A stretch of DNA of 64,000 bases. It comes from a bacterium. GTDB taxonomy: Bacteria > UBA8248. The translations under genes were made by a program, and so were the position numbers. A model generated the notes under the pieces. That model was not told the origin of the DNA. It saw only the letters and a list, made by a program, of their open reading frames with translations, and made no database searches. Shown here in pieces: positions 1-28,391 of the stretch. Every line of letters starts with the position of its first letter. The stretch's first letter is position 1. The stretch is from assembly GCA_965261085.1 (NCBI GenBank), contig OZ253442.1, forward strand, positions 32,001 through 96,000. The letters are read 5' to 3'.

Positions 1-198
1 CGGGTTGAGCGCACCGGCTGCGGGACCGTCGCCCTTGCCCGTTGGCCCGTGGCAGGAGGCGCAAAGCTGCTGGTATTTGACCTTGCCGGCCGCAGCATCG
101 CCTTTTTGCTGAGCGGCCCCGTCATCGGAGGCCAGGAGAAAGATCGCCATTCCGAGTACGCAGCCGGCGCAGATGAAAAACCTTCTCGATCGAGACAT
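1..198 (-). CDS. Periplasmic class I cytochrome c (3' part runs off the window)
   Basis: Not in the ORF track. Manual translation from ATG 198: MSRSRRFFICAGCVLGMAIFLLASDDGAAQQKGDAAAGKVKYQQLCASCHGPTGKGDGPAAGALNP. Signal-like N-terminus, CxxCH heme motif, GGAGG RBS upstream. Confidence 0.85.
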   Translation of the reverse strand, partial: MSRSRRFFICAGCVLGMAIFLLASDDGAAQQKGDAAAGKVKYQQLCASCHGPTGKGDGPAAGALNP

Positions 199-246
199 TC
201 GTTTTCAACCTCCCTCACGATTCTACGGGGTAAACCACCATCTCCA

Positions 247-2913
247 TTAAAGCGTCCGGGGAACGAAACTAAGACTCGTCAGCGAATGCTTGTGCGGAGA
301 TTCTCCAATCTTCTTCAATCGTCCCTTACCCAGCTTATACCGATAGCGGTTGGTCAAGGGATCCGGCACCCTGTGAACCACCGAATTGGCCGGGTTTTCG
401 GGAAAGCCGAAATAGGCGAAGGTGACGCCTGCGCGAACCGCATCCGTGACAATGGCCACTGCGGTGAAGCTCCCCTTGCTTTTCTTGATTCGTCCGGCCT
501 TCATCAGCTCGGTGAACGTCTGCTCCTTGTCGTCGACGCCGATGTATCCTCCCGTCTGCACGAGCAGGTCGTCGTTCTCGATGGCCACGAGGTCTCCGGA
601 CTCGATGCCTCGGGCGCTGGCGTCTTGCGGGTGAATTTCCAGGAACTGCTGCGGCCAGCGCTGCATGATGTAGGGACGCCGCTTGTCGTCGTAGCCGGAT
701 TGCCAAAGCTCGTTTATCCGGCCGTTCGTCACCCACAGTTCGTCTCCTTGCGGAGTGACCCGATCGTAGAAATCCTTAAAATCTTCCCAGTAGCTTTTCA
801 GCAAAACCGCCTTGCCGCTCTGGGTCCCGAAGGAGGTGAGCCATTTCCTGTGCATCGTGGGTCCTTCCGGGGTTCCCAATTCAAGGGTCTCGTCGTGTAG
901 CCGCTTCGTCCCGACAAGTTCTCCCTTGACCATGCGGATGGGGGTTTGAATGCCGGCGGTTCCGTATTCGCGGAGCAGTTCGTGCCCTCGTTTCCCATCG
1001 CGCTTGGCCTTCACCACGAGCGGATGGTAATTGAGGACCCCTTTGCGTCCGAAGCGGGCCGCCTCCTCGAATATCTGGTTGCTGTTCTTCCAATCGAAAC
1101 CCTTGAATCCCATCTTCCTGGCGAAGGCCGCGATGATCCACCAGTCGGGCCTGGCCTCTCCGGGGGGGTCGGCGAACTTGCTGTAGAGCCTGAGACGACG
1201 CTCGCCGTTGCACCGGGTGAAGTCTTCCTCGCCCCAGGTGGCTGCCGGAAGCACCAGATCCGCATACTCCGTTCCGATCGGAGTAACAGGATAAATGTCC
1301 TGGTTGGCCACGACCATGCCGCCGGTGTCCACCCGTCTCTTTAAGGCGTTCACCGCCGTCTCGACGTCAAAGCTCTCGATCTGATGGGGATTGTTACGAG
1401 TCAATCGCTGGAAGACGCCCATCAATTCCTGGGATGCCGCCATGGCCTGACACCAGGTGGTTCCGATGACCCATGCGAAACGGACGTGGCCATCCACGAC
1501 CCACCGGTCCAGATCGATTTCCTTCTTGCGGCGTCCCGGCGCCTTCTCCGGAGACAGGTTCCTCGGATAACCGGCTGCGCCCATCCAGCCTCTTTGATGC
1601 CCCCCTCCGCGCGAGATCACACGGCCCGGTCGCGACCCGGCCCCACAAACCAGCCCGAGGGCCGCGAAGGAAGCCGTGTTCCCGAAGCTGTTGCACCAGT
1701 AATTTCCCTTCTCGAGCATGAACGAGGTTTTTTTGCGCGTCCCGTCGGGTTTGGGCTTGGCCAGGATTTCAGCGGTCTTCCGAATCGATGCCGCGGACAC
1801 ACCCGTAATCTTGGCGACTTGGTCCAACTCGGCGTAGGGATAGCTTAGAACCCACTTTTTGTAGCCCTCGAAGTCGGTCCCGTACTTACCCCAGGTCGTG
1901 ACCCACTGCCACGGCGTGTTGCGGGTTCCGCGTCCCATGCCGGCGTTGATCTCCCACTTGTTCGCCAACTTTCGCGCAATCCACTCCTTATCCTCCCAGC
2001 CGTTTTCCAGGATCAGGCGGATGATGGCCAGATGAAGTACCGTATCCGTTCCCGGAATGACGGGAAGGAAGAGACCTCCCTGTTTCTCACCGTAGACAAC
2101 GCCCGTGGTCTTCCGGGGAAGGGCGAAGATCAGTTTCTTGGCAGGCGTTTTCCCTCCCATGATCCAGGAGGTGAACAACACCGATTTGGTTTCCCACGGG
2201 TCGACGCCGGAGAAGAAGATCACTTCGGCCTCTCCCCAGTCGTCATAGGAGGCGCTGAAAGGATTGATACCGGAAAAATCGATCCCGGGCGTGTCCGGGC
2301 CGGGACCCGGCTTGTCATGCGGGGCGTAGGCCGGCGTTCCGATGGCGCGGAAAGCGAGCTTGGAGATGGCGTAGGTATTTTCGAAATACTGATAGGAATA
2401 CGTCTTCATGGCCCAGGCGTGCTCGCCGTACTTCTTGAGGACATGTTTCGAGATTCCCGCCATGACGCCCAGGGCCGTATCCCACGAAACCTCCTGGAGG
2501 GTTCCACCAACCCGCATCATCGGCTGACGCAGGCGATCCTGGGAGGGTTCGTTGGGATTAAAAAGCTTCTTGGCCAGGACGCCGCCCCGGATGGAGTGGT
2601 TCCCCCCGACGTTCACGACCTTCGAATCCTTATCGGGCATGACGATAACGTGGTGGGGGCGACCGTTGGCCATAATAATGTTGTGCATGTTCGGGCTGAT
2701 CCAGCCGCCGCTCATCATGCCGGTGGGGAAATCGACGCCCAGGGCATTCTCCCCGCCCTTGGGCCCGCCCTCGCGCCCGACCGGCCACCTGTACACCTTG
2801 TACCCGCAGCCCACGATGCAATAGTCACACACCGTGGTGAAAACCTCCGCGTCCGGCGGCGGGAGGGGGACACTGTCTTCCGCAAGGTAGTAGTTCGTTA
2901 CCTTTCTTGCCAT
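247..2913 (-). CDS. idrA: DMSO-reductase-family molybdoenzyme large subunit, AioA-like; likely iodate reductase IdrA
   Basis: CDYCIVGC [3Fe-4S] motif, HSIRGG, EKG, RGGGHQRG, C-terminal molybdopterin dinucleotide domain. Context of Rieske plus two CcP genes is the idr rather than aio arrangement. AioA HNRPAYNSE is replaced by HDKPGPGPD. Confidence 0.8.
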   Translation of the reverse strand: MARKVTNYYLAEDSVPLPPPDAEVFTTVCDYCIVGCGYKVYRWPVGREGGPKGGENALGVDFPTGMMSGGWISPNMHNIIMANGRPHHVIVMPDKDSKVVNVGGNHSIRGGVLAKKLFNPNEPSQDRLRQPMMRVGGTLQEVSWDTALGVMAGISKHVLKKYGEHAWAMKTYSYQYFENTYAISKLAFRAIGTPAYAPHDKPGPGPDTPGIDFSGINPFSASYDDWGEAEVIFFSGVDPWETKSVLFTSWIMGGKTPAKKLIFALPRKTTGVVYGEKQGGLFLPVIPGTDTVLHLAIIRLILENGWEDKEWIARKLANKWEINAGMGRGTRNTPWQWVTTWGKYGTDFEGYKKWVLSYPYAELDQVAKITGVSAASIRKTAEILAKPKPDGTRKKTSFMLEKGNYWCNSFGNTASFAALGLVCGAGSRPGRVISRGGGHQRGWMGAAGYPRNLSPEKAPGRRKKEIDLDRWVVDGHVRFAWVIGTTWCQAMAASQELMGVFQRLTRNNPHQIESFDVETAVNALKRRVDTGGMVVANQDIYPVTPIGTEYADLVLPAATWGEEDFTRCNGERRLRLYSKFADPPGEARPDWWIIAAFARKMGFKGFDWKNSNQIFEEAARFGRKGVLNYHPLVVKAKRDGKRGHELLREYGTAGIQTPIRMVKGELVGTKRLHDETLELGTPEGPTMHRKWLTSFGTQSGKAVLLKSYWEDFKDFYDRVTPQGDELWVTNGRINELWQSGYDDKRRPYIMQRWPQQFLEIHPQDASARGIESGDLVAIENDDLLVQTGGYIGVDDKEQTFTELMKAGRIKKSKGSFTAVAIVTDAVRAGVTFAYFGFPENPANSVVHRVPDPLTNRYRYKLGKGRLKKIGESPHKHSLTSLSFVPRTL

Positions 2914-2925
2914 GGTGCGTCCTCC

Positions 2926-3468
2926 TCAGCGCTGCAGCGGCGCAAGGTTCGAGTGATAACCGTATATGAGGCCCATCATCCCAATCGCGTAGATGTCGTC
3001 TCCACGGGTCTCCAGAACGACCTGGGGGAGGCTTTCCGTGGCTTGCCCCGCCGCGACCATGCCGTGCTTCATCAGGTCAAAGGACGTCAGATGAAAAGGG
3101 CACGGGCCTATGGCCTTGTACTTCCCGTTGTAGGTGCCCTGGAGGGGACCCCCCATGTGAGTGCAAAGGGTGCTGAACGCCACGACGTCTCTCTTAGAAC
3201 CGACGCCGCCGCCGGCCTCGACGCCCAACTTGATCAGCATGCATCCCGAGAAGACGTCCTTCCACGGATATTGGAAGTATTGCGGCGCATCGACCTTCAG
3301 ACTGCTGAGTTTTCCGATTTTCTTGCGGGGATAACCAGCCTTTTGCAGGGCCGCCCCGGCCATACCGGGAATGCCCTGGACCAGCACCACGCTCACGGCG
3401 GCTCCGCTGGTCAGGAGAAAGGCTCGCCGGGACATGCAAGGCCGGTTTTCCTTGGCTTCCTGAGTCAT
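2926..3468 (-). CDS. idrB: Rieske [2Fe-2S] small subunit with Tat signal (AioB/IdrB)
   Basis: Start reassigned to ATG 3468 (AAGGAGG RBS). SRRAFLL twin-arginine motif; CTHMG...CPFH Rieske ligands, without the two disulfide cysteines. Confidence 0.82.
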   Translation of the reverse strand: MTQEAKENRPCMSRRAFLLTSGAAVSVVLVQGIPGMAGAALQKAGYPRKKIGKLSSLKVDAPQYFQYPWKDVFSGCMLIKLGVEAGGGVGSKRDVVAFSTLCTHMGGPLQGTYNGKYKAIGPCPFHLTSFDLMKHGMVAAGQATESLPQVVLETRGDDIYAIGMMGLIYGYHSNLAPLQR

Positions 3469-3478
3469 GGATTCCTCC

Positions 3479-4618
3479 TTACGGCATGGCCGCGTACGGC
3501 GGCAGTTCAGGGGGCTGGACGAGCAAAGGCTTATCGCTCGAGAGTGACTCCAGGAAGGCCAGCAGGTCCTCCTTCTCCTCGTCTGAAAGCCCCAATTTTT
3601 TGAGAAGGGGACTCTTGTTCGAGTCCTGCCCGCCTCCTTCGTTATAAAAATCAATGACCTCTTCGAGCTCGAAAAAAGCGCCATTATGCATGAAAGGGGC
3701 CGTGTATTTCAGTTCCCGGAGGCTGGGGGTGCGGAACTTCCCCCGGTCGGCTTTCCTCTTGGTGGTGTAGTAGAGCCCCAAATCCCGATCCGCCTTTCGG
3801 TACACGGATTCAGGAACCCCCCGAATCACGTGCTGAAAACGAAGCGTTATCTGCCGCAGGGGGTCTTCCTTGAACGCGGGATTTTGGGGAACGCCGATGT
3901 TGTGATAGTCATCGTCCGACAACAGGGACCCGTTATGGCACTGGACACACTGGGCCTTTCCGCGAAAAAGAGCCAAACCCCGTTTCGCGCTTTCGGAAAG
4001 CGCTTTGCGGTCTCCTTTCATGTAGCGGTCGAACGGCACGTCCTTCGCACTGGAAACCAGTGTGCGCTCGAAAGCCGAAATGGCGCGCCAGGCGTCGTCG
4101 ATGGTCGGCCAGGCGGCTCCGAATACCTCACGAAAGCGTTTGACGTACTCCGGAACCTGACGCAGACGCTCCTCCATCATCATGGTGTCGCCGTTTCCGG
4201 CCACGTTGCCGGTAGCGGCGCTCTTGGCCTGGGCTTCCAGACTCGGAACCTCGCCGGCCCAGAACAATTTTGCGTAATAGGCTGAATTCAGGATTGTCTG
4301 GGAGTTCCTCCAGTGCTGCGTGCCTGGATAGCCCCGGCTCAGATCCCCCCCGTCTCCCCAGCCGCTCTCCGGGCTGTGACAAGAGGCGCACGACGTGCTG
4401 GCATCCCCCGACAACCGGGCGTCGAAAAAGAGCAGCTTGCCCAACTCCACCTTGGCCGGAGACATGGGATTGTCCGCCGGAACCGGAACCGGCGGAAGGG
4501 GCCCCAGGGGAGGAAATTTCCCCTCCTGGGCCGAAACCGACCCTCCCATCAGAAGGGCGGCGATGAAGCAAACGGCCATTGTGGAACCCAAGAACCAATT
4601 TTTCATTCGCCCTTTCAT
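3479..4618 (-). CDS. idrP1: Di-heme cytochrome c peroxidase (CcP/MauG family), IdrP1-like
   Basis: Signal peptide, LGKLLFFDARLS, CASCH and CVQCH, FRTPSLR, PFMHNG. Confidence 0.78.
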   Translation of the reverse strand: MKGRMKNWFLGSTMAVCFIAALLMGGSVSAQEGKFPPLGPLPPVPVPADNPMSPAKVELGKLLFFDARLSGDASTSCASCHSPESGWGDGGDLSRGYPGTQHWRNSQTILNSAYYAKLFWAGEVPSLEAQAKSAATGNVAGNGDTMMMEERLRQVPEYVKRFREVFGAAWPTIDDAWRAISAFERTLVSSAKDVPFDRYMKGDRKALSESAKRGLALFRGKAQCVQCHNGSLLSDDDYHNIGVPQNPAFKEDPLRQITLRFQHVIRGVPESVYRKADRDLGLYYTTKRKADRGKFRTPSLRELKYTAPFMHNGAFFELEEVIDFYNEGGGQDSNKSPLLKKLGLSDEEKEDLLAFLESLSSDKPLLVQPPELPPYAAMP

Positions 4619-4628
4619 GGCCGTCTCC

Positions 4629-5735
4629 TCAATTATCGCCTAGTTTGCGAATTGCATAATCGGGAAGTTTCGGCTCCTTCACGGAAACCGGAGAGCCGGA
4701 GAGACTTTTCAGGAATTCCACCAGGGCCTTGCGCTCATCCGCCTTGAGACCCAGGGGTTTCAGCCGCGTACTCTTGTTGGGACCGCGGCCGCCGCCCTTG
4801 TCGTAAAAGGCGACGACGTCCTCCAGCGCGGCGAATGCGCCGTTGTGCATGTAGGGAGCCGTTCGAGCGACTTCCCGCAAAGTGGGCGTTCGGAACTTGC
4901 CCCGGTCGCTCTCTTCTTTCGTCACGACGTAGAGGCCCGGATCGGCCCTGAGGTTCATGAAATTCGGAACACCGATAACCTTGTTGAACCGGCGGAAAGT
5001 GATGTGGCGCAGCGGATTCTTGAATATCTGCTCGTTTTCGGGAACGCCGAGCGCATGAAATTCGCCGTCGCTCAAAAGAGATCCGCCATGGCACTGGACG
5101 CAACCGGCCTTCCCCTGGAACAAGGCGAGTCCCTTTCGAGCCTGGGCGGAAAGGGCTTTTTTGTCGCCCTTGAGATACTTGTCAAAAGGAACGTTCCGGG
5201 AAGTGATGGTATGGAGGAACGCCGTAATGGCCTTAAGCGCCCCACCGAAGGAAGGTTCCCCTCCATACGCCTCTTTGAATTTCTTGACATAGGAGGGAAT
5301 CTGCTTGAGCCGCTCGGGAAACAACCGGCCATCGACCAGCATGAAGTGGGCCTCGGTGAGGTGATCGCGAACGAGCGTGGGCAGGTCGGCCCCGCTCAGG
5401 CGACCGTCCCAAAAGACGCGTTTGTTGTAGGCGGCGTTCAGGAGAGTTTGCGCGTTCCGAAAATACTTGCTCCCGGGATAGCCCGTGGACAGGCTCTGTC
5501 CATCACCCCATCCCTTGGCGGGTTGATGGCAGGTGGCGCAACTGATCCCCCCGTCCCCCGATAACCGGGGATCAAAGAACAGATACCGGCCCAAATCGGT
5601 CTGTGCGGGCTTCTGGGCCTTGGGCGGCGGAAGAGGCGAGAGAGAAGCCCCCCAGCCGGCGGCAGGAAGAAAAACCCAGAAGCTCAACAGGATTCCGCCG
5701 ATCACCCGACACCCGACAGCGCGAACAAGATCCAT
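4629..5735 (-). CDS. idrP2: Di-heme cytochrome c peroxidase (CcP/MauG family), IdrP2-like
   Basis: Signal peptide, LGRYLFFDPRLS, CATCH and CVQCH, FRTPTLR, PYMHNG. Paralog of the adjacent gene. Confidence 0.78.
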   Translation of the reverse strand: MDLVRAVGCRVIGGILLSFWVFLPAAGWGASLSPLPPPKAQKPAQTDLGRYLFFDPRLSGDGGISCATCHQPAKGWGDGQSLSTGYPGSKYFRNAQTLLNAAYNKRVFWDGRLSGADLPTLVRDHLTEAHFMLVDGRLFPERLKQIPSYVKKFKEAYGGEPSFGGALKAITAFLHTITSRNVPFDKYLKGDKKALSAQARKGLALFQGKAGCVQCHGGSLLSDGEFHALGVPENEQIFKNPLRHITFRRFNKVIGVPNFMNLRADPGLYVVTKEESDRGKFRTPTLREVARTAPYMHNGAFAALEDVVAFYDKGGGRGPNKSTRLKPLGLKADERKALVEFLKSLSGSPVSVKEPKLPDYAIRKLGDN

Positions 5736-5808
5736 TCTTCCCTACCCCCCACGGCTAGTATTCTATACCCTATAAGATATCCGTCTCAACCGTGACGAAA
5801 ATTCGGCC

Positions 5809-6552
5809 TTATTTCGAAGAGAACGTGAAGGCGGCAGCCTCCTTTCCACCGGCGGAGATGGTGATGTTTTTCTTTTTCATCCCCAGAGCCGGATGCCACG
5901 CCCTCAGGGAGTATTTCCCCGGGGGTATATCCTTGATCTGAAAGGTCCCATCCCCGCTCATGATCGCGTAATAGGGGTTCCTGGCCACGAAGAGAAACCC
6001 CTTCATCCAGTTGTGCACGTCGCACTCGATCCGGACGATCGGGCTCCGCCGAACCTTGGCCTTACGGACGACCTTTTTCCGAAATTTGGGTTGAGAGATG
6101 TTCCACATGGACCGTTTGGAGCGTCCTATGATCTCGTAGGTGTGAATGTTGTGATGGGCGGCGTCGCTGTTCAGGATGGTGACCTTGCCCCCTTCGGCGA
6201 CTATTTGCAGGTAGGGGACATAGGCGCACTTCTTCTGGTCCACCACGACGCTCTGGATTTTCTTGGGAAAGGCCTTGCCCTGCTTGACCTTGTGGAGATA
6301 GACGATCACGCCCCGGAGAGAGCCGTCCTTCGCGTCCACCTCCTGGCGGGTGACCTGGCCCTTGCCGCAGGCGTCATGGTCCTTGGTAATGATGTATTTG
6401 ACGGGCGCGGGAGGAGCACCCTTGAAGCTCACTCGGCCGGTGATGGTCCCGCCGCTGGTGGTAGATACGACTTTATACTTTGCTGAGGAAGAGTCAGGAG
6501 AAAAAAGAAAAAGCAGGGGAAAAACGAAAAGTAAGAAGGATTTACCCATCAT
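5809..6552 (-). CDS. Secreted carboxypeptidase-regulatory-like/cupredoxin-domain protein
   Basis: Signal peptide; GTITGRV; HNIH...CDVHNWM putative type-1 Cu ligands; DGTFQIKDIPPGKYSLRAWH beta-sandwich. Confidence 0.72.
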   Translation of the reverse strand: MMGKSFLLFVFPLLFLFSPDSSSAKYKVVSTTSGGTITGRVSFKGAPPAPVKYIITKDHDACGKGQVTRQEVDAKDGSLRGVIVYLHKVKQGKAFPKKIQSVVVDQKKCAYVPYLQIVAEGGKVTILNSDAAHHNIHTYEIIGRSKRSMWNISQPKFRKKVVRKAKVRRSPIVRIECDVHNWMKGFLFVARNPYYAIMSGDGTFQIKDIPPGKYSLRAWHPALGMKKKNITISAGGKEAAAFTFSSK

Positions 6553-6789
6553 TGAAAGAACTCCCTCGCAATGTCTTCTGTTGGCTTACGGCAACACGAT
6601 TATCGACCATCAACTATCCCGAGTCGTTTTCCGTCCTCCTCATCAGCGAAGTGTCGTCAAGGAACGGGAATGTCCTTTCGATGCGGGTCGCGCTCAAGTC
6701 GGCGACAAGTGGAATCGTCCCCACCACGGACGCAACAGAAACCCAACGTTCATCGTAGCGTGTCGCATGCTCTTTATGAGCTTGTTCAT

Positions 6790-6837
6790 AATTTCAATAT
6801 ACGAGCAACTCTTGAATGTTGCAACAAGATTGAAATT
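6790..6837 (-). promoter_or_regulatory. Sigma70-like promoter of the idr operon, framed by inverted repeats
   Basis: Minus strand TTGCAA (6824-6819)-17 bp-TATATT (6801-6796). Perfect 9-bp IR AATTTCAAT (6790-6798)/ATTGAAATT (6829-6837); palindrome TGTTGCAACA (6817-6826) over the -35. Confidence 0.5.
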
Positions 6838-7040
6838 CGACCTTTCTCGTGAGGCGGGCCGTTGCGCTCTGAGACCTACTTGCTTAGAGAGAACAAGAGA
6901 AGGGAGACTCAGCATCGAAACGCAGTGTGACCTACGTGAAAAACCAAAGACCACATCTAATAATGAAGAAAACTTTCCCCAGCAAATGACGAATGCACGA
7001 ACAGATGAGAAGAGAATCGAGTGTCTGTTTTAGTGGCTGT

Positions 7041-7080
7041 TACAGGGACATACAGGGATATACGAAGACGCACAGGGAGC
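7041..7080. repeat. Four 10-bp periodic direct repeats near the tRNA 3' end (integrase arm-type-site-like)
   Basis: TACAGGGACA TACAGGGATA TACGAAGACG CACAGGGAGC, 60-100 bp beyond the tRNA-Arg CCA end. Confidence 0.5.
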
Positions 7081-7139
7081 AAATTCAAAATATCCAGATC
7101 GCTGCTATCTGGTTGATTTTATTTTCCCTGATTTTCAGA

Positions 7140-7216
7140 TGGCACGCCCGGTAGGACTCGAACCTACAACCTTCGGATCCGAAGTCCGACGCTCTATCCA
7201 ATTGAGCTACGGGCGC
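7140..7216 (-). tRNA. tRNA-Arg(TCG)
   Basis: GCGCCCGTAGCTCAATTGGATAGAGC...CTTCGGA...GGTTCGAGTCC...CGTGCCA, 77 nt, encoded CCA. Confidence 0.95.
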
Positions 7217-7273
7217 GTGATATCCGTTGGTCTTGTTCGGAAGACAGGTTCCGCTCAAGAATGTGTAAACGTA

Positions 7274-7350
7274 TGGGGTGAGTGAGGGGACTTGAACCCC
7301 CGACCTCCGGGGCCACAACCCGGCGCTCTAACCACTGAGCTACACCCACC
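7274..7350 (-). tRNA. tRNA-His(GTG)
   Basis: GGTGGGTGTAGCTCAGTGGTTAGAGC...TTGTGGC...GGTTCAAGTCC...CACCCCA with G-1. Confidence 0.95.
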
Positions 7351-7423
7351 ATGCCTCCACCCGCCTCGCCTGCGCGTGTGGCCACGCATCCGGCGAGAGG
7401 AGCAACGCAATTACCCCAAAAAA

Positions 7424-7500
<77 letters not shown>

Positions 7501-7863
7501 CCACCTCGGCGACTTTCCCGTGGCAACCCACTCGCAGGCACCGATTTTCCGCTCAAAAGGCAAGAGAAAATATCACAAATCGAGATCGTCAACAACGCCT
7601 AGATCAGGAAGACCCATCCTGCGCGAGAAGTCACGATGGAAAAAGGATGGCTTGGCGCTCAGGCCAGGACAGGAAGATGACCTGGAGCGATTACGCGGAC
7701 ACGCGAACCCGGTAACGCACGCATGGGGCCTTTCGGCCCCGCCCAGCGAGCGCCCCTCTTCTCCCCAAATTTTTGTATTGAGCGTTTTAGTATAAGGAAA
7801 CCGCCGGAAATGTCCAGTGCCGCCGGGCAATGGCCACTATCCCAGGCGGGCGCAGCAAAAAAT

Positions 7864-8757
7864 CTACTCTCCCTCGAAGGGTTTTCTGCGCACCCTGCCC
7901 TCGCCCACCAGGGCCGCCTTCATGAGGAGAACCAGGGTGTTGGTTCTGGGGATGAGGTGGATGAAGCGATCGAGTTTCTGATCGATCACGTCGATTTCGC
8001 TCTCAGAAAGTCCGAGCGCCGCCACACGCTCCCTGCTCAAATCGACGGCGAAGGGAAACTCCTGTGCGGCGGCCGCCGCAGCTCCTTGCGCCTGGGTGAC
8101 GGTAATCCGGTACCCCGCCTTCGCCATCTCTTCTTTGAGAAACGGCCACACCCGCTCCAGAAAGGCGGGATGATGCCCCAGAGCGCGCCAAACGCTGCCC
8201 AGCCCCCCGGTCGTCTCGCGAATCTCTTCATACAGAGCACCCAAAGAAGCATCGACGGCGGCCGGGTCCACCAGACTTTCTCCACGCATCGAGGAGGGCG
8301 GACCCTTTGGCAACTCATCGGTGTCGGATTCTGCGCCGGGGCGGACGCCACCTATCTTCATGCCGTTGAGCGCGCCCTTCAAGGCGGCGGCGAGAATGAG
8401 GTTTTTGGGATTCGCGTCATTGTATATGTCCAGGACGCCGTCGACCGCGCCGATATCCTCAGGCCTGTAGTCGAAATTATCTTCTAATTCTTCGCCCACG
8501 TCGGGCACGTCGGGCGGCATGGGCGGGGCCATCCGCATCCTGAGGTTATCCGCGCAGCGCTCGAAATAAGCGATCGATGCATTGGGCCTGAGCGCATCCC
8601 AGGCCGCGGAAAAGTATTGTTCATGAACGGCCAGGGTGCGATAGATGAGGTTCACCTGCGTGCTGCGGAGCACCTGACGCATGTCTTCATAGATCGCCGC
8701 AACCTTCCCGGTGGCGCGATCTTCGGTGATTTCATCCAGGGCGATGGGTTTCATCAT
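7864..8757 (-). CDS. DehI (group I haloacid dehalogenase) fold protein
   Basis: Two internal repeats (EDRATGKVAAIYEDMRQVL...YRTLA...AW and DPAAVDASLGALYEEIRET...WRALG...VW) typical of the DehI pseudo-dimer. Start set at the ATG after GAAGGGG. Confidence 0.7.
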   Translation of the reverse strand: MMKPIALDEITEDRATGKVAAIYEDMRQVLRSTQVNLIYRTLAVHEQYFSAAWDALRPNASIAYFERCADNLRMRMAPPMPPDVPDVGEELEDNFDYRPEDIGAVDGVLDIYNDANPKNLILAAALKGALNGMKIGGVRPGAESDTDELPKGPPSSMRGESLVDPAAVDASLGALYEEIRETTGGLGSVWRALGHHPAFLERVWPFLKEEMAKAGYRITVTQAQGAAAAAAQEFPFAVDLSRERVAALGLSESEIDVIDQKLDRFIHLIPRTNTLVLLMKAALVGEGRVRRKPFEGE

Positions 8758-8898
8758 TCCCCCTTCGAGGCCCGAAAGGCAAAAGCGAAAAAGCGGCCCG
8801 GCGAGGCGCCGCGCGAATCGCCCAGAGTATATGGGTGGTTGTCGGATGGAAACAAGCCAGTTTCGTTCCAGAAGCCCATCTGTGTGCAATAAAAACCC

Positions 8899-8943
8899 TT
8901 GACATAAAAGTTGAATGGCAATATATTTGATTCAGTCAAATAT
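8899..8943 (+). promoter_or_regulatory. Sigma70 promoter overlapped by a palindromic operator (likely MarR autoregulation)
   Basis: TTGACA (8899-8904)-17 bp-TATATT (8922-8927); IR ATATTTGA-N5-TCAAATAT (8923-8943); second half-site ATATTTGA at 8954. Confidence 0.72.
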
Positions 8944-9064
8944 TGATGCCCTCATATTTGACGAGGATTAAACAAGAACCATCAGACGAAATGCCCGGGA
9001 AACATCGAGGCTGCGCCTCCAAAACCCGGGCCACGAAATCCGGGAAAGACGGCACAGGGGAGTC

Positions 9065-9559
9065 ATGAATAAAATGGACATCACGCCGCAAGCCTGTTGC
9101 GAAGGGGCAGCACTCGAGACCCACGGCCTCGGCGCGCGTCTTCACGTAGCGCTCGATAATCTCTTTCATCAGAAAAAACCCGCCGACAGAGAGGCGGTGT
9201 GCCGCCACGACATCACCAACAACCAGTGGACGCTCCTTCACATGCTCGCCCATGCGGAAACGGGGCCCCTGCCCATGGGGGTGATCGCCAGGCGAATGCG
9301 CCTCACCCCGAGCGGCGTGACGCGCTGCGCGGACCCACTCGTCGATAGCGGGCTCATCGAGCGCTGCATGAAAGAAGGAGACCGCCGCGTGTGCTGCCTG
9401 GGATTGAGCGAGGCGGGCGCCGCGCTCCACGGGACCATATCGGAAGGCTGCGCGCTCGAGGACGGCGCGCTTCTGGACGCTTTCTCCCCCGAGGAGCAAG
9501 AAGAGATCGTCCGCGCGATAGAAAAACTCGCGCGCGCCGCCAAGGAGTCCTCGTCATGA
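9065..9559 (+). CDS. Cys-rich MarR-family transcriptional regulator
   Basis: ITNNQWTLL...LTPSGVTR..DPLVDSGLIER...DRR wHTH pattern; CC pairs. Confidence 0.85.
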   Translation: MNKMDITPQACCEGAALETHGLGARLHVALDNLFHQKKPADREAVCRHDITNNQWTLLHMLAHAETGPLPMGVIARRMRLTPSGVTRCADPLVDSGLIERCMKEGDRRVCCLGLSEAGAALHGTISEGCALEDGALLDAFSPEEQEEIVRAIEKLARAAKESSS

Positions 9560-10653
9560 TCACCGAAGCGAAAACAGTCCAGGCGGTTGATAACGCTACA
9601 CCGCCCGCGGACGAGGCCTCCTGCTGTGCGCCCAAGCCGAAATCCAGATGGACCTCCCCCTACCTGTGGGGTTTCATCTCGATAGGCGCTCTGCTGCTGC
9701 TCATTCTGTGGGCGGGGGCGGGCCGGGAGATTTCCGCCGGCCTCATCACCGCCGAGATCAAGCGAAACCTCCTCTTCATGCTGAAGAGCTTCTGGGGCAT
9801 TGCGCCCTTTTTTCTCTTGAGTGTGGGGGTCTCGGCCTGGGTCACCGTCGCCGGATACGCGGATAAAATAAAAGCGGTGTTCAGCAAGCGCCAGGGTCTC
9901 GCCATCGGCGGCGCGGCGGGGGTGGGCGCGGTGGTTCCTTTTTGCTCTTGCGGCGTGATTCCCCTGATCGCCGCCATGCTCGCAAGCGGCGTACCCCTGG
10001 GTCCCGTAATGGCCTTCTGGATAAGCTCGCCCCTGATGAGCCCCGAGAAATTCGTGCTGACCGCAGGCGTTCTGGGGACGGATTACGCCTTCGCGCGGCT
10101 CATCAGCGCCATCGTCCTGGGAGCGGGCGCCGGATACGCCACATATCTCATCGGGCGCGGCGGAAGGCTCGATGGTCAACTCAGGGCCACCATCGCGCCG
10201 AGTGCGCCCAAAGCCCACGATGAGAACCGAATAAAGGGGCCGTCTTTGAGCGGCTTCACCGCCCAGGCGTGGAGCGTGGGCTTTTATCTCTCCAAGTGGC
10301 TGGCCGTGGCGTTTTTCTTAGAAGCGCTGATCGTCCACTACGTCGACCCGGCGTGGATAGGCGCGATACTCGGGGCGGATAACCCCTGGTCGATTCCCCT
10401 GGCGAGCGCGGTGGGCATCCCGCTCTACACCTCGGGCGTCGCCGCCATCCCCATCACCAAGGGGCTCCTCGCCGCAGGCATGGGCAGCGGTGCGGCCATG
10501 GCCTTTCTCATCGCGGGTCCCGCCACGTGCATACCCGCCATGGCCGGCGTGTGGGCGCTGGTGAAGCGAAAAATCTTCGCCATCTACCTCGCCACCGGCA
10601 TCCTGGGGTCACTGGTTGCGGGATACGCATTTCAGCTTCTCATCCGGCCATAA
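9556..10653 (+). CDS. DUF318/ArsP-family permease
   Basis: PFCSCG...FWISSPLM and GIPLY...AFLIAGPAT motifs; many TM helices; ATGA overlap with the MarR stop. Confidence 0.85.
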   Translation: MITEAKTVQAVDNATPPADEASCCAPKPKSRWTSPYLWGFISIGALLLLILWAGAGREISAGLITAEIKRNLLFMLKSFWGIAPFFLLSVGVSAWVTVAGYADKIKAVFSKRQGLAIGGAAGVGAVVPFCSCGVIPLIAAMLASGVPLGPVMAFWISSPLMSPEKFVLTAGVLGTDYAFARLISAIVLGAGAGYATYLIGRGGRLDGQLRATIAPSAPKAHDENRIKGPSLSGFTAQAWSVGFYLSKWLAVAFFLEALIVHYVDPAWIGAILGADNPWSIPLASAVGIPLYTSGVAAIPITKGLLAAGMGSGAAMAFLIAGPATCIPAMAGVWALVKRKIFAIYLATGILGSLVAGYAFQLLIRP

Positions 10654-11768: not shown

Positions 11769-12086
11769 CTACATCGCGCGCGGCAATGCGGCCCGAGGCG
11801 GGAGACCCTCCCTCGTGGGCAGAAGGCGAATAGCATCGCCTGATTCCCCCTCGGCGCGGGCAAGTTCGAAATGCGCTTGCAGATTGAGCCAGAACTCGGG
11901 CTCGACGCCGAACCAGTGGCCCAAGCGCAGAGCCGTATCGCCGGTGATAGAGCGCTTGGCGTTGATGATCTGGCTCACACGGTTGGGTGGCACGCCAATC
12001 TGGCGCGAGAATTCCGTAGGCGTGATCCCGAGTTCCGCCAATTCGTCCTTCAATATCTCACCGGGGTGCACGGCTCGCTTCAACAT
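11769..12086 (-). CDS. higA: HigA-family antitoxin (HTH)
   Basis: HPGEILKDEL...KRSITGDTALRL...FWLNLQ. Confidence 0.9.
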   Translation of the reverse strand: MLKRAVHPGEILKDELAELGITPTEFSRQIGVPPNRVSQIINAKRSITGDTALRLGHWFGVEPEFWLNLQAHFELARAEGESGDAIRLLPTREGLPPRAALPRAM

Positions 12087-12099
12087 CTCATCTTCCCTC

Positions 12100-12126
12100 T
12101 CATGAATGATAGTCCACTATCTCGAC
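12100..12126 (-). pseudogene. higB: Relic 3' end of higB toxin
   Basis: GTC GAG ATA GTG GAC TAT CAT TCA TGA = VEIVDYHS*, the typical HigB C-terminus, directly upstream of higA. Confidence 0.7.
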
Positions 12127-12127
12127 C

Positions 12128-12592
12128 CTACTTCCCGCACTCCCCGCGCGCGAGCTTGGTGGCGATGTGGCCCGGAAAGGCGGGGAAGATCTCGATCACC
12201 CTCTTGTCTTTCACCTCGCGCACGACGACGGTGTGCGAGTACCTTCTGGACAGGAAAAACCCGGTGAGGCGAAAGCGGCCGAAGGACTGCCAGGTGAGGA
12301 TGAAGGGATAAGTGATGGATTTTTTCTTATTAAAAGGCCGCGAGATGCGAAGCTCCCCCTCGCCGCCGATGGGGTAGGCCAGTTTCTTGAACCCGCCCTT
12401 TTTCCGCTCCACGAGCCAGATAGCCAGATCCCGCTTTCCCTCGGGCAGCGTGATGCGCACCTTCTGCTCGACCTTGTAGCCGTTCAGGATCGTGTAGCTC
12501 ACTTCGCAGTTCAGCACTCTCTCCAAGTTCGTCTCGGCGCTTGCGCCGAGACACGAGGCGAGCAGCACGAAAACACAGATGATGCGCTTCAT
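12128..12592 (-). CDS. Hypothetical secreted basic protein
   Basis: MKRIICVFVLLASCLGASA signal peptide; GAGG RBS; no recognised domain. Confidence 0.65.
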   Translation of the reverse strand: MKRIICVFVLLASCLGASAETNLERVLNCEVSYTILNGYKVEQKVRITLPEGKRDLAIWLVERKKGGFKKLAYPIGGEGELRISRPFNKKKSITYPFILTWQSFGRFRLTGFFLSRRYSHTVVVREVKDKRVIEIFPAFPGHIATKLARGECGK

Positions 12593-12721
12593 CCGAAAAC
12601 CTCAGGAATGGAAGGGTCGCATACGACGGCGAACGTATTATGGATGATTCGAGCAGGTGATTTCCAGCGGGGACGGTCGGAGGCGCTTCCATCAAACACG
12701 GAAAACTTATCCCCCCAACAA

Positions 12722-12755
12722 AAAACCGCCCCGAGCCGGAACCCGGGGCGGTTTT
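12722..12755. terminator. Bidirectional rho-independent terminator
   Basis: AAAACCGCCCCG-loop-CGGGGCGGTTTT. Confidence 0.75.
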
Positions 12756-12770
12756 ATTCTGCGGCGTTAT

Positions 12771-13448
12771 TCAGCCGTTCCTGTTCGGATCCAGTGCGTC
12801 GGGTTCGGGGTATTCGTTCGGCCAGTGGTCCACCATCGTCTTGTAGTAGGTCTTGACCTTCCCGCCGTCGAGATGCAGGGATTTCTTGATCTTGTCGACC
12901 TCTCGCTGTTCTTCGAGCGGGATGCCGAGCGAATCCATGTAGCGGTTGAAGAGGTTGAAAAGCCCGCTCACCATCGTGAGTTCGACGATCTCGGCTTCCG
13001 AGAAATGCTTCCTCACCTCCTCGAACACGTCGTCTCTCGAACGCGCGGTGTTGAGCGTCACATGCTCCGCCCACAGGATGGCCGCCTTCTCGCGCGGGGT
13101 GAACAAATCCGATGCCATGTAGCCGTCCGTGCCGATGACTTCCACTTGTTCTACAGTGATGCCCGCCGCTTGACCAAGCGACGTGTTGTGCGTGTATCAG
13201 TAGGCGCACCCGTTGAGATGGCTCGTCTTGATGACCACCATCTCCTTTATCTTCGTCTTGAGCAGGCTGCCCCCGCCCTCGCGCTGGAGCGTCGCTATGA
13301 AGGGCAGCATGGCCTTGGCGACATGGGGGGTTTTGGCCAGCACCCGCATCGAATGCGGGACGCGGCCCAGCATGGCGGTGGTGGCCTCGTAGAAGCGGGC
13401 CACGTCGGCATCCGCCTCCTCGGGCTGAATCATCTCTATTCTGGACAT
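12771..13448 (-). CDS. AhpD/carboxymuconolactone-decarboxylase-family selenoprotein (UGA=Sec at 13197-13199)
   Basis: ORFs 13197..13472 and 12771..13145 are in frame and joined through one TGA: ...TSHLNGCAY-U-YTHNTSLG... (CxxU in place of CxxC). C-half FTPREKAAILWAEHVT...FSEAEIVELT completes the fold. Confidence 0.85.
13164..13199 (-). promoter_or_regulatory. Putative bacterial SECIS element
   Basis: UGA, 13 nt, then stem CGUCGCUU / loop GGUC / AAGCGGCG; G-initiated apical loop 21 nt after UGA. Confidence 0.7.
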
Positions 13449-13557
13449 ATCAGAACTCCCCTGTCTGCGCATCCAATAATAAAATAGACGCCTTGTTCAT
13501 CATCGGCTCCAGCCGCCGGGCGGCGGCGAACAGCCGAATCCTCATAAATTTTCCCCA

Positions 13558-14160
13558 TTATGACCCATCCGCCGCCTCCCGGGCCAGCCACGCGCGAAAC
13601 TCCGCGAGCGCGAGACCCCGGTGGCTGATGCGGTTTTTGAGGTCGAGCGGAAGCTCAGAAACGGCGCAGCCGTGCTCGGGCAGATACATGAGCGGGTCGT
13701 AGCCGAAACCGCCCTCCCCGCGCGGTGCGCGAAGTATCCGCCCGCCCAGCACACCCTCGAAAAAACCGAACCAACCGTCGGGCTTCACGTAGGCCAGTAC
13801 GCAGGCGTATCGCGCGCCACGCTCGGCTTCGGGTACTTCGCGCATTTTTTCGAGCAAGAGCGCGTTCCGCCCCGAATCGTCCAGCCCGTTTCCGCCGAAG
13901 CGCGCGGAGCGGACGCCCAATTCACCGGGCAGCGCATCCACCTCCACGCCCGAATCATCCGCGAGGGCGGGGAGGCGGCTCGCCTCGCATGCGGCCCGCG
14001 CCTTGATGAGCGCGTTTTCCGCGTAGGTGGAGCCGGTCTCTTCGACGTCGAATTCGATGCCCGCCTCATGTGGGAGCAGCAGTTCGACGCCCATGCCCAG
14101 GAGAGCGGCGCGCACCTCGCGCGCCTTTCCGGGATTTCCACTCGCGAGAACGATCTTCAT
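13558..14160 (-). CDS. rdgB: Non-canonical purine NTP pyrophosphatase (RdgB/HAM1)
   Basis: MKIVLASGNPGK, ENALIKA, ADDSG, GFGYDP, SHRG; start overlaps the rph stop. Confidence 0.95.
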   Translation of the reverse strand: MKIVLASGNPGKAREVRAALLGMGVELLLPHEAGIEFDVEETGSTYAENALIKARAACEASRLPALADDSGVEVDALPGELGVRSARFGGNGLDDSGRNALLLEKMREVPEAERGARYACVLAYVKPDGWFGFFEGVLGGRILRAPRGEGGFGYDPLMYLPEHGCAVSELPLDLKNRISHRGLALAEFRAWLAREAADGS

Positions 14161-14894
14161 TTCGCGCCGATATACGCGGCCTGAACTTCCAGAAGCTCCC
14201 CGATGCCTTTTTCCGCCAGGGCGATCAAGCGGTTCAGATCGCTTTTGCGAAACGGTGTCTGCTCGGCCGTTCCCTGAAGCTCCACGAAACGGCCCCCGGC
14301 GGTCATCGCGACGTTCATGTCCACCTCGGCGGTCGAGTCCTCCGAATAATTCAGATCCAGCATGGGGACGCCCCCGACCACGCCGACGCTCACGGCGGCT
14401 ACCGCCTCGCGGATGGGTGATTTGGCGATGCGCCCATCTGCGAGCATGGCGTTCACCGCGCGCGCCAGGGCCACGTAGCCTCCCGTGATGGCGGCGCACC
14501 GCGTTCCGCCGTCCGCCTGAATCACGTCGCAATCGATGTAAATCGTGATCCCCTCTATTTTCGAGAGGTCGACTATCGAGCGCATCGAACGCCCGATCAG
14601 GCGCTGTATCTCCTGGCTGCGGCCCGCGCGCGCGCGTTTTCTGTCCACGCGCCAGGGCGAGCTGCCCGGCAGCATGGCGTATTCCGCCGTCACCCATCCC
14701 TCGCCCGAATCGCGCTTGTGGGGCGGGACACGCTCCTCCACCGAGGCGGTGCACAAAACCCGGGTATCACCCACGGCGATGAGGCAACTCCCCGCGCAGG
14801 TTTTCACGTAATCGGCCTCGACGCTTACTTTTCGGTTCTCATCGTGAAGCCTCCCGTCCGCGCGCACCTCATCGCCCATTCCTTTCCTTGCCAT
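14157..14894 (-). CDS. rph: Ribonuclease PH
   Basis: GWVTAEYAMLP, GRSQEIQRLIGRS, DVIQADGGTRCA, ELQGTAE. Alternative start 14879. Confidence 0.95.
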   Translation of the reverse strand: MARKGMGDEVRADGRLHDENRKVSVEADYVKTCAGSCLIAVGDTRVLCTASVEERVPPHKRDSGEGWVTAEYAMLPGSSPWRVDRKRARAGRSQEIQRLIGRSMRSIVDLSKIEGITIYIDCDVIQADGGTRCAAITGGYVALARAVNAMLADGRIAKSPIREAVAAVSVGVVGGVPMLDLNYSEDSTAEVDMNVAMTAGGRFVELQGTAEQTPFRKSDLNRLIALAEKGIGELLEVQAAYIGAK

Positions 14895-14994
14895 GCTCTC
14901 TCCTATCGAAAATGAACCTCGCGTCCAAACGCAGGGGATACTACGGGGATTTCATAGGTAAATCCAGAGAAGAAGAGCCGGGCCGGCGAACGGG

Positions 14995-20778: not shown

Positions 20779-21762
20779 CTAGCCGCCGATGGAACTCATC
20801 GTGCGCTCAGGCTGGATGAACTCTTCCTGTCCGATGAGGTGGCCCGGCGTCTTGGTGAGAACCACCTCGCCGAGCCAGGCCTTTATCTCATCATCCGAAG
20901 CGCCGCCCCGCAGCATCTTCTTGACGTCGTGCTCGACCGTGGAGAAAAGGCAGGTCCTCACCATGCCGTCCGCCGTCAAGCGGATGCGGTTGCAATCCTG
21001 ACAGAAAGGCCGCGTGACCGAGGCGATGACGCCCACCTCGCCCTTGCCGTCCTTGTAGCGGTAGCGCGTCGCGGGGTCGGAAGGGTGTCCGCTCACCAGT
21101 TCGAGTTCTCCCTCGATGGAGAGGCCCTCCAATATTTCCTCGGCCGTCAGCACCTTCTCTTTCGTCCAGGTGCGGTCCGCATCGAGCGGCATGTATTCGA
21201 TGAAGCGAACGACGTGGCCCGTTTCGCGCGACCACCTGGCGAAGCGCGGCAATTCCTCCTCGCTCAAGCCCTTGACCGCCACCGCGTTGATCTTGATCGG
21301 CGAGAATCCCGCCTCCGCAGCGGCCTCTATGCCTTCCATCACCTGGCCGAAAACGTCGCGGCGCGTCATGAACAGGAATTTGCCCGCGTCCATGGAATCG
21401 AGGCTGATGTTCACGCGCCGAAGCCCCGCCGCGTACAGATCCTTCGCCATCTTGGGGAGAAAAACGCCGTTGGTCGTAAGAGCCAGGTCCATATCGGGCT
21501 GAATTTCCATCATCTGCTCGACCAGGCGGTGTAAGTCCTTTCGCAGGAGCGGCTCGCCGCCGGTCAAGTGATAGCTCGTGAAGCCCAAATCGGTGGTGAT
21601 GCGCACCACGCGGGCGATTTCCTCATAATCGAGAACCTCCGCGTGGGGCAGCCACGTCATGCCCTCTTCCGGCATGCAGTAGAAACACCGGAAGTTGCAC
21701 CTGTCCGTCACCGAGATTCTCAAATCATCGTGCGCGCGTCCGTAGCGATCGAATAACGCCAT
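20779..21762 (-). CDS. moaA: GTP 3',8-cyclase MoaA
   Basis: CNFRCFYC radical SAM motif, FCQDCNRIRLTADG, C-terminal IGG. Confidence 0.96.
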   Translation of the reverse strand: MALFDRYGRAHDDLRISVTDRCNFRCFYCMPEEGMTWLPHAEVLDYEEIARVVRITTDLGFTSYHLTGGEPLLRKDLHRLVEQMMEIQPDMDLALTTNGVFLPKMAKDLYAAGLRRVNISLDSMDAGKFLFMTRRDVFGQVMEGIEAAAEAGFSPIKINAVAVKGLSEEELPRFARWSRETGHVVRFIEYMPLDADRTWTKEKVLTAEEILEGLSIEGELELVSGHPSDPATRYRYKDGKGEVGVIASVTRPFCQDCNRIRLTADGMVRTCLFSTVEHDVKKMLRGGASDDEIKAWLGEVVLTKTPGHLIGQEEFIQPERTMSSIGG

Positions 21763-21773
21763 TTCCTCTAGCC

Positions 21774-23729: not shown

Positions 23730-23773
23730 TCGCTTACACCTGATACGATGAGAAAATCCCGTTCAAACTGCGC

Positions 23774-27395: not shown

Positions 27396-27836
27396 TCAAG
27401 CCTGCTTCCGGGGATAAAGCTCGTGGTCGGGATCGACCCAGACGACGTAGAAAGTGTCCAAGAGCAAAACCCCGTGAACGCGCCCATGCTCATTCGCAGT
27501 GAGTTGAAACTGCCACGCCTGCTCGGAGCGAAACTGCTCGTTGAGGGTGCGAAACCCTCGGGGTTCGGTGGTTTCGCTAAAATCAATGGGATGCGACCGC
27601 AAAGCGCTCGATCTGTTCGTTCGAAACTCCTTTACGGTCAAGCGCGATACATCCCTCAACCGCTCCAGAAGAGTCTTCAGATACCCGTCCCGGCAACGAG
27701 CAAGACTGAATTTCGCGTTTCTAGTCAGATCCAGATGCTTGAACGAAAACCTGAGTGTATCTGCATCCGGCAGCGGTTGAATAGATGGGATTGTTTCGGC
27801 TAAACGTGGAACCTTACCCCGCCTGATCTTCCCCAT
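27396..27836 (-). CDS. Putative toxin (RelE-like nuclease) paired with the Panacea antitoxin
   Basis: FSFKHLD...RSHPIDF...GRVHG...FYVVWVDPDHELY; overlaps the antitoxin 3' end. Confidence 0.6.
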   Translation of the reverse strand: MGKIRRGKVPRLAETIPSIQPLPDADTLRFSFKHLDLTRNAKFSLARCRDGYLKTLLERLRDVSRLTVKEFRTNRSSALRSHPIDFSETTEPRGFRTLNEQFRSEQAWQFQLTANEHGRVHGVLLLDTFYVVWVDPDHELYPRKQA

Positions 27837-28278: not shown

Positions 28279-28391
28279 TTCAATCTCCCTTCTGCGGCGG
28301 CGCGTCGTGAACCGGGCGCGGAGCGCATTCACTCTTGCTTTACCCATGAAACCACTTCGGGTCGGAATGTTCAAGCCCGCTCGTCCGCCAC

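Follow-up and report, generated by a model that had tools for sequence, protein, structure and literature searches.

The first 6552 nucleotides (nt) of the stretch analysed here, a window of 64,000 nt from contig OZ253442.1 whose numbering is used throughout, carry six genes on the minus strand that encode a periplasmic molybdoenzyme system of the Idr type, which probably reduces iodate. The genes run from a cupredoxin-like protein (X) through two cytochrome c peroxidases (CcP; P2 and P1), a Rieske small subunit (B) and a molybdenum (Mo) large subunit (A) to a cytochrome c, and all six products are predicted to be periplasmic or exported. The core of this operon is a new member of a published clade of putative IdrA. 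What is new is the widespread cupredoxin-like accessory gene, together with a putative, lineage-specific link of the Idr-type cluster to a Rieske/cytochrome b complex of the NAD(P) type. The features of the locus are as follows (aa, amino acids).

5809-6552, minus strand: X, cupredoxin-like, 247 aa, with a signal peptide (secreted)
5760-5799, minus strand: sigma-70-like promoter match (10/12) and weak hairpin, from a consensus scan only, inside the 73-nt gap between X and P2
4629-5735, minus strand: P2, IdrP2-type di-haem cytochrome c peroxidase, 368 aa, with a signal peptide and two CxxCH motifs
3479-4618, minus strand: P1, IdrP1-type di-haem cytochrome c peroxidase, 379 aa, CCP_MauG
2926-3468, minus strand: B, IdrB-type Rieske [2Fe-2S] small subunit, 180 aa, with a Tat signal
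247-2913, minus strand: A, IdrA-type Mo-bisPGD large subunit, 888 aa
1-198, minus strand: class I mono-haem cytochrome c, first 66 aa only, CASCH, the remainder lying past the window edge

The large subunit falls outside the arsenite oxidases

The product of gene A matches the Pfam families Rieske_3 (E 4.8e-36), Molybdopterin and Molydop_binding. As in IdrA, it carries a [3Fe-4S] motif, C29-x2-C32-x3-C36 (CDYCIVGC, residues 29-36), and has no signal peptide. When we searched a plasmid collection with A by tblastn, 55 records matched, and identity was bimodal among the 40 listed: the idr-like clusters of Azonexus and Thiothrix were 58-59% identical to A, and the other 38 listed records, mostly annotated as AioA, 27-31%. 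In a collection of species-representative genomes at least 584 loci encode a relative of A, and the best 80 of these 584 loci (numbered with the prefix L) were kept for the comparisons of loci below.

Our tree of 94 large subunits included the window, 76 of the 80 genome loci (the four partial sequences of L041, L048, L068 and L071 were left out), two plasmid idr-like sequences, ten database proteins and five annotated AioA. It was built by a quick LG+G4 search, with AioA as a root for drawing only. The five AioA were split from the other 89 rows with an SH-aLRT of 100, on a branch of about 1.0 change per site, and window A is not nested in the AioA clade. It was placed instead in an 11-row clade with metagenome-assembled genomes (MAGs) of Nitrospinota, whose sister group consists of Methylomirabilota/Rokubacteria sequences. 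Reyes-Umana et al. (PMC8692401) defined IdrA by synteny of the P2-P1-B-A type and assigned its deeper branches to Planctomycetaceae, Rokubacteria, Lindowbacteria and NC10; the same four groups are the named neighbours of window A. The operon had been regarded as an oddity of its host, a view that we abandon because the clade has already been published as deep-branching IdrA. In the supplements of that paper the taxon names Lindowbacteria, Rokubacteria, NC10, Nitrospin-, Planctomyc- and Stieleria were not present, and loci L011, L013 and L051 were not tied to the paper's tree.

The two motifs quoted in the original prediction, HDKPGPGPD and RGGGHQRG, were both found in window A. All five AioA references have HNRP(AYN/GYS/KFG)SE and R-x-GGHQE(G/A) at the corresponding places. 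The contrast drawn with AioA stands, the exact string HNRPAYNSE given for the first motif occurring in three of the five references and variants of it in the other two. The contrast extends beyond the window, with GGHQRG present in 88 of the 89 Idr-like rows and an H-D pair, in place of H-NRP, after the conserved histidine in 87 of them. Window A lacks both HNRPxxxSE and GGHQEG, which we take to be the arsenite-binding residues of AioA. The change from Glu to Arg beside the Mo site would fit an anionic substrate.

Peroxidases, Rieske subunit and gene order

P1 and P2 each carry two CxxCH motifs and a CCP_MauG domain (E 7.1e-45 for P1 and 9.9e-42 for P2), as di-haem CcPs do, and are 50% identical to each other. 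With E values of 1e-45 to 1e-51 against bacterial CcPs and of 1e-18 to 1e-19 against MauG, both are far nearer to the former: the best solved relatives of P2 are bacterial CcPs (3hq6, E 3.7e-45, against 4.5e-19 for MauG), and P1 matches PDB entry 4aal at E 9.1e-51. The small subunit B, with a twin-arginine sequence (MSRRAFLL) and the Rieske signature CTH...CPFH, scored 121 bits with TIGR02694 (cut-off 95.65). When we compared the four core proteins with their counterparts on the Azonexus plasmid, whose idr cluster is of the Rhodocyclales type, identities were 62% for P1, 52% for P2, 57% for B and 58% for A, the counterpart of P2 being the first CcP of that cluster and that of P1 the second.

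The large subunit thus stands beside a Tat-Rieske subunit and two di-haem CcP genes, as in Idr systems, at gaps of 10-12 nt. Over the whole locus the gaps X/P2/P1/B/A/cytochrome c measure 73, 10, 10, 12 and 48 nt, and coordinates, translations and family matches alike bear out the earlier description of six co-oriented, tightly spaced genes. A synteny search, which had been suggested together with the large-subunit phylogeny, recovered the core order P2-P1-B-A in 62 of the 80 related loci, and since the arrangement recurs to this extent it is not due to chance. The exceptions (18 of 80) comprise three loci with split or duplicated CcP matches, eight with P1-B only (five end at a contig edge and three have one long open frame over both CcP places), four Dehalococcoidia loci with one CcP and no Rieske gene, two with the CcP pair a few kb downstream, and one without a CcP or Rieske gene. 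In the Dehalococcoidia loci (L038, L039, L044 and L049) about 30 nt separate the single CcP gene from the large-subunit gene that follows it, and a gene for a Rieske small subunit was not detected. No CcP gene was found at the five aio loci examined. Taken together, the position of A outside AioA, the Idr-like motifs and the P2-P1-B-A synteny uphold the original assignment to the Idr type.

A cupredoxin-like gene upstream of the peroxidases

Against Pfam, only the C-terminal part of X was matched (CarboxypepD_reg/fn3_3), with no cupredoxin domain called, and against NCBIfam no model matched, MbnP included. When we aligned 34 homologues of X, residues C62, Q106, C109, D130, H134, N135, C177, H180, M183, G202, P210, G212 and H220 were invariant. 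A profile of residues 92-190 reached 16 solved chains at E up to 1, of which 15 are cupredoxins; the type-1 copper protein 5fc9 matched best (E 7.6e-6), and amicyanin came next, both wild-type and several variants (E 6.6e-4 to 3.7e-3). H134, C177, H180 and M183, present in 34 of 34 sequences, have the spacing of a cupredoxin site and align with the positions that we take, by identity and residue number, to be the ligands of amicyanin. The Pfam family Copper-bind was reached weakly, by eight of the 34 members (best E 0.019). The earlier "cupredoxin-like" call is supported by these four invariant residues and by the matches to 5fc9 and amicyanin, and X is predicted to hold an amicyanin-like type-1 copper site. 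Its cupredoxin domain (about 92-190) appears to lie inside a CarboxypepD_reg-like beta-sandwich, formed by a strand at about 35-60 and the C-terminal part (194-243). The family has 3490 representatives at E up to 1e-30, some of which are long repeat proteins that match the sandwich only, and its members are named "hypothetical", "carboxypeptidase regulatory-like" or "plastocyanin" in their sources.

Of the 80 loci, 68 extend at least 900 nt past the first CcP gene on its upstream side and could be counted for X; the other 12 could not. X was found upstream of the CcP pair in 33 of the 68 (within 200 nt in 22 and within 1.6 kb in 11 more), elsewhere in the locus in three, and not at all in 32. 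Upstream copies occur in 15 of 18 loci of Planctomycetota, in all four labelled Nitrospinota, in all seven close relatives without a phylum label, and in single loci of Acidobacteriota, Hydrogenedentota, Lindowbacteria, Latescibacterota, Lentisphaerota, Rhodothermota and Rokubacteria, and were absent from the 15 loci of Chloroflexota and the eight of Pseudomonadota. With so many phyla represented, X is not the host-specific carrier that had been supposed. We found no published report of a link between cupredoxin X and idr in the searchable literature, where the papers that mention both iodate and a cupredoxin look unrelated, judged by title. In L032 and L034 the block X-P2-P1 is separate from B-A, and the order in L076 is X-P2-P1-P2-P1-B-A; judged by this pattern, X would be tied to the peroxidases rather than to the reductase. 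No clean link was seen when the presence of X was set against the loop type of A, the HDKPGPG-type loci comprising 27 with X upstream, 18 without X and two with X elsewhere.

The surroundings of X vary among relatives. L060 has a gene with a CtaG/Cox11 copper-chaperone domain directly after X, a Planctomycetota MAG (L052, 2455-4007) has two tandem copies of X upstream of P2, and a Nitrospinaceae MAG (L063, 2958-3680) has an HmuY-domain gene between X and P2. In L063 a sensor kinase and a sigma-54 response regulator lie nearby (12036-15379), as they do beside the Azonexus and Thiothrix idr-like clusters; no such genes adjoin the window operon. The gap between X and P2, 73 nt in the window, is 400-800 nt long and apparently non-coding in L003-L009. 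In one of these, L005, a 154-nt stretch at 2018-2170 is 80% identical to window 31836-31975, which suggests a dispersed repeat. Given the promoter-like match and hairpin in its own X-P2 gap, the window X may be transcribed separately from the other genes.

Cytochrome c and the genes beyond the window edge

Cytochrome c genes were counted at the 68 loci with at least 300 nt downstream of A, as genes that start within 400 nt after A. One was found in 21 of them, and also on the Azonexus and Thiothrix idr-like plasmids, so that this carrier is no more peculiar to the host than X; a cytochrome c gene follows aioA in NT-25 too. We dropped the idea that the cytochromes c of the window lineage and of Azonexus are orthologues (30% identity over 91 aa), and with so low an identity the two look independently recruited. 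In the window, the 66-aa fragment had been missed by a list of open reading frames (ORFs) with a 70-aa minimum and was recovered by translation.

The genes left of the window, whose inspection had been recommended, could be followed in the closest relative, L001 (OZ244713.1), a 3.9-Mb chromosome with 95.7% DNA identity to window positions 1-9896, flanks included. Its full-length cytochrome c has 126 aa and matches Cytochrom_C and Cytochrome_CBB3. Beyond it the co-oriented cluster continues on the same strand with a 701-aa NfnB/GltD-like iron-sulphur (FeS) flavoprotein (best solved relative 9bov, E 2.8e-83), a 166-aa Rieske protein (best solved relative 9rk4, E 9.1e-15; 9rk3 also matches), a 498-aa b6-type cytochrome b and a 267-aa multi-haem cytochrome c. 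Entries 9rk4 (Kuste4569) and 9rk3 (Kustd1480) are the Rieske subunits of two Kuenenia complexes with an NAD(P) oxidoreductase (PMC12954380).

This four-gene module follows idrA and the cytochrome c gene in all nine loci of the Nitrospinota clade with downstream room (L001-L005, L007-L009 and L016); L006 is truncated by the end of its contig. Among the other 70 loci none has the module after A, and in L074 a cytochrome b and a multi-haem cytochrome lie upstream. Since L001 and its relatives continue past the window edge, the window operon most likely represents the first six genes of a co-oriented cluster of ten. The "six-gene" operon of the original prediction is in that respect an artefact of the window edge, the closest relative having ten co-oriented genes.

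Proposed mechanism

From the genes we infer which substrate is used, which way the electrons run and what X interacts with, and we propose the following working model. IdrB would carry IdrA across the membrane by the Tat route. In the Nitrospinota lineage, quinol would be oxidised by the Rieske/cytochrome b complex with its NAD(P)-oxidoreductase subunit, which would feed the carriers. Electrons would enter the Rieske centre of IdrB from the cytochrome c encoded downstream, from X or from both, and pass by way of the [3Fe-4S] cluster to the Mo cofactor, where IO3- would be reduced to hypoiodous acid and then to iodide. P1 and P2 would remove H2O2 or another reactive by-product. As X-P2-P1 moves as a module, X is probably a dedicated electron donor of P1 and P2. 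In Denitromonas, an idrA knockout and a dependence on Mo have been reported, and removal of H2O2 by P1 and P2 was proposed (PMC8692401).

A further and quite unlikely extension is that, in this Nitrospinota lineage, the Idr-type reductase serves as the high-potential sink of a bifurcating Rieske/cytochrome b complex. One branch would lead from quinol through the multi-haem cytochrome and cytochrome c or X to IdrBA and iodate (about +0.7 V), and the other through the b haems and FeS clusters to the reduction of NAD(P)+. If true, this would provide a chemolithoautotroph with reducing power without oxygen, and would give a genetic basis to iodate as the oxidant in apparently anaerobic nitrite oxidation, a role that has been proposed and never demonstrated.

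Points against iodate reduction and alternative explanations

Several observations weigh against the scheme as a whole or against parts of it. The deep clade is putative and known from genes alone, none of its members having been assayed. The tree contains no verified IdrA (SCT, IR-12, DN11 or R. azorensis), and the tie to proven enzymes rests on published statements and on the Azonexus plasmid cluster, itself known from genes alone. The loop beside the conserved histidine reads HDKPGPGPD here and is of the HDKC type in the Azonexus-type proteobacterial subclade; as it differs between subclades, substrate specificity could differ as well. A passes the arsenite-oxidase equivalog TIGR02693 of NCBIfam (462 bits against a cut-off of 359). 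None of the 46 window ORFs of at least 100 aa scanned against Pfam resembles a chlorite dismutase (Cld), as had been noted before. Both the promoter-like site between X and P2 and the gap of 400-800 nt in L003-L009 weaken the case for co-transcription of X, and the Rieske/cytochrome b module lies outside the window, its presence being deduced from relatives.

It is rather unlikely that the enzyme is an Idr-like reductase for another high-potential oxyanion or oxidant (bromate, chlorate, selenate or other), with peroxidases that handle the matching by-product. The difference between the HDKPGPGPD and HDKC-type loops would suit it, as would the lack of reported assays for deep-clade members and the promiscuity of related Mo enzymes, the Shewanella DMSO reductase reducing both bromate and iodate (PMC9468665 and PMC9048795). 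However, the Arg-for-Glu change and the H-D motif are common to the whole clade, the four-gene core is orthologous to that of Azonexus at 52-62% identity, and the deep-clade Candidatus Methylomirabilis iodofontis comes from iodine-rich water (PMC10989891).

A second alternative concerns X, which might be no carrier and might instead serve as a target or partner modified by MauG-like di-haem proteins, in the style of MauG-preMADH or MbnH-MbnP, or in copper handling. The X-P2-P1 module of L032, L034 and L076 is compatible with such a role, as are the non-cupredoxin sandwich around the copper domain and the sub-threshold matches of P1 and P2 to the MbnH and MauG models (204-235 bits). We find it decidedly unlikely, given that P1 and P2 are far nearer to true CcPs than to MauG, that X has the full His-Cys-His-Met set of an electron-transfer type-1 site and no match to MbnP or any other NCBIfam model, and that P1 and P2 occur in canonical idr clusters from which X is missing (upstream in 0/8 Pseudomonadota loci).

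That the operon encodes a true arsenite oxidase, with X and the cytochrome c as acceptors in the manner of azurin or cytochrome c for Aio, is highly improbable. In its favour, A and B score above the cut-offs of TIGR02693 and TIGR02694, homologues of A are named "arsenate reductase (azurin) large subunit" in databases, a cupredoxin partner would suit Aio, and genes for a MarR regulator and for a permease of the ArsP_1 family are found 2.5 kb away. Against it, A is split from AioA with full support at 27-31% identity and lacks HNRP..SE and GGHQEG, the CcP pair is absent at five of five aio loci, no ars, aioXSR or phosphate-type genes adjoin the operon, and the permease is closer in score to the models for SaoE and for Cu/Zn efflux. 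TIGR02693 itself does not separate Idr-like from Aio sequences; the idr-like plasmid genes bear the same product name. The best solved relatives of A are AioA chains (4aay, E 6.1e-86), and the 60 matches listed of 69 include none named as an iodate reductase.

Host and genomic context

Among named sequences, A and X have their nearest relatives in MAGs of Nitrospinota, and L001 shares 9.9 kb with the window, flanks included. We therefore consider the host Nitrospinota-like, tentatively, because idr clusters have been reported to move horizontally (PMC8692401). An animal symbiont is plausible in view of two ankyrin-repeat genes and RTX genes in the window; a literature search on iodate reduction in sponges or symbionts, judged by title, returned nothing relevant. 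The ankyrin-repeat proteins (38735-40855, plus strand; 318 and 378 aa; Ank_2 E 2e-72 and 4e-69) are encoded in tandem and are unusual for free-living bacteria, and two RTX calcium-binding repeat proteins (41892-45537, minus strand) have 809 and 350 aa, the larger with 24 HemolysinCabind stretches. Mo cofactor genes lie 14 kb from A (20779-25015, minus strand): moaA, a moeA-PBP-like fusion (PRK14498, 754 bits) and a second moeA. These three groups of genes fit a host-associated life and a need for Mo cofactor, without proving them.

Upstream of X, a 590-nt spacer is followed by three tRNA genes at 7140-7500; an Rfam scan of positions 1-9000 returned these tRNAs and two sub-threshold opposite-strand matches on two of them, and no Mo cofactor (Moco) riboswitch. 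Beyond the tRNA genes is a protein with a DehI (haloacid dehalogenase) domain (7864-8889, minus strand; 341 aa; E 4.5e-14; no NCBIfam match), for which a halogen link is possible. The MarR regulator overlaps the ArsP_1-family permease (9065-10653, plus strand), and the models nearest to the permease, SaoE and Cu/Zn efflux, are matched below cut-off. A SocA/Panacea antitoxin-domain protein (27814-28632, minus strand; E 4.9e-23) overlaps by 23 nt a 146-aa ORF at 27396-27836 with no family match, and the two may form a toxin-antitoxin pair.

Significance

Iodate reduction shapes marine iodine speciation and, through iodide, ozone deposition, and its known genetics come from a few Proteobacteria. 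If our reading is true, the bulk of idr-like diversity lies outside Proteobacteria, with at least 584 loci in species-representative genomes, and about half of the examined loci carry a conserved copper protein whose link to idr was not found in the searchable literature. In Nitrospinota, known as a phylum of nitrite oxidisers, the reductase of one lineage would moreover be wired to a Kuenenia-type NAD(P)-linked Rieske/cytochrome b complex; for one Kuenenia complex, no favourable partner reaction has been proposed so far, according to PMC12954380. The proposal that iodate is the oxidant where nitrite oxidation appears to proceed anaerobically is cited in PMC8114937 and PMC11373643, and the supply of iodate in the cores of oxygen-deficient zones has been argued to be too low (PMC8114937). 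In the literature searched on iodate we found no link between Nitrospinota and idr. The genes described here are concrete material for testing the electron supply of Idr, the role of IdrP1 and IdrP2, and iodate-driven anaerobic nitrite oxidation.

Comparison with known systems

The closest known system is IdrABP1P2 of Pseudomonas sp. SCT and Denitromonas iodatirespirans IR-12, with a putative member in Ca. M. iodofontis, in whose MAG, from iodine-rich spring water, Zhu et al. described idrP2-P1-B-A (PMC10989891). The window has the same four genes in the same P2-P1-B-A order, together with the Tat-Rieske subunit, the [3Fe-4S] motif and the periplasmic location. It differs, as far as genes alone can tell, in its Nitrospinota-like host, its upstream cupredoxin-like gene and its HDKPGPGPD loop, and in the window lineage the genes of a Rieske/cytochrome b complex directly adjoin the cluster.

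AioAB (4aay, 1g8k) belongs to the same fold family and has the same architecture of Rieske, [3Fe-4S] and Mo-bisPGD centres and Tat export. In NT-25 its genes are followed by a cytochrome c gene, as in the window, and cupredoxins act as partners of AioAB in some species. AioA, however, is 27-31% identical to A and lies on the other side of the split, with HNRP..SE and GGHQEG where the window has HDKP..D and GGHQRG, and is encoded without CcP genes. As for X, the His...Cys-x2-His-x2-Met spacing of its core is shared with amicyanin and with the type-1 copper protein 5fc9 of Nitrosopumilus. Unlike in these proteins, the core sits between two parts of a CarboxypepD_reg-like sandwich and is accompanied by an extra invariant pair of cysteines, C62 and C109.

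Finally, the module of L001 resembles two complexes of Kuenenia stuttgartiensis (Kuste4569-4574 and Kustd1480-1485), the function of module and complexes alike being putative. Its cytochrome b is unsplit (498 aa), unlike that of the Kuenenia complexes, and it stands beside an Idr-type reductase and not beside a HAO-like octahaem protein. Common to both are an FeS flavoprotein, a Rieske protein, a cytochrome b and a multi-haem cytochrome c, and the solved relative nearest to the L001 flavoprotein, 9bov/9bp5, is the homologue to which PMC12954380 turned.

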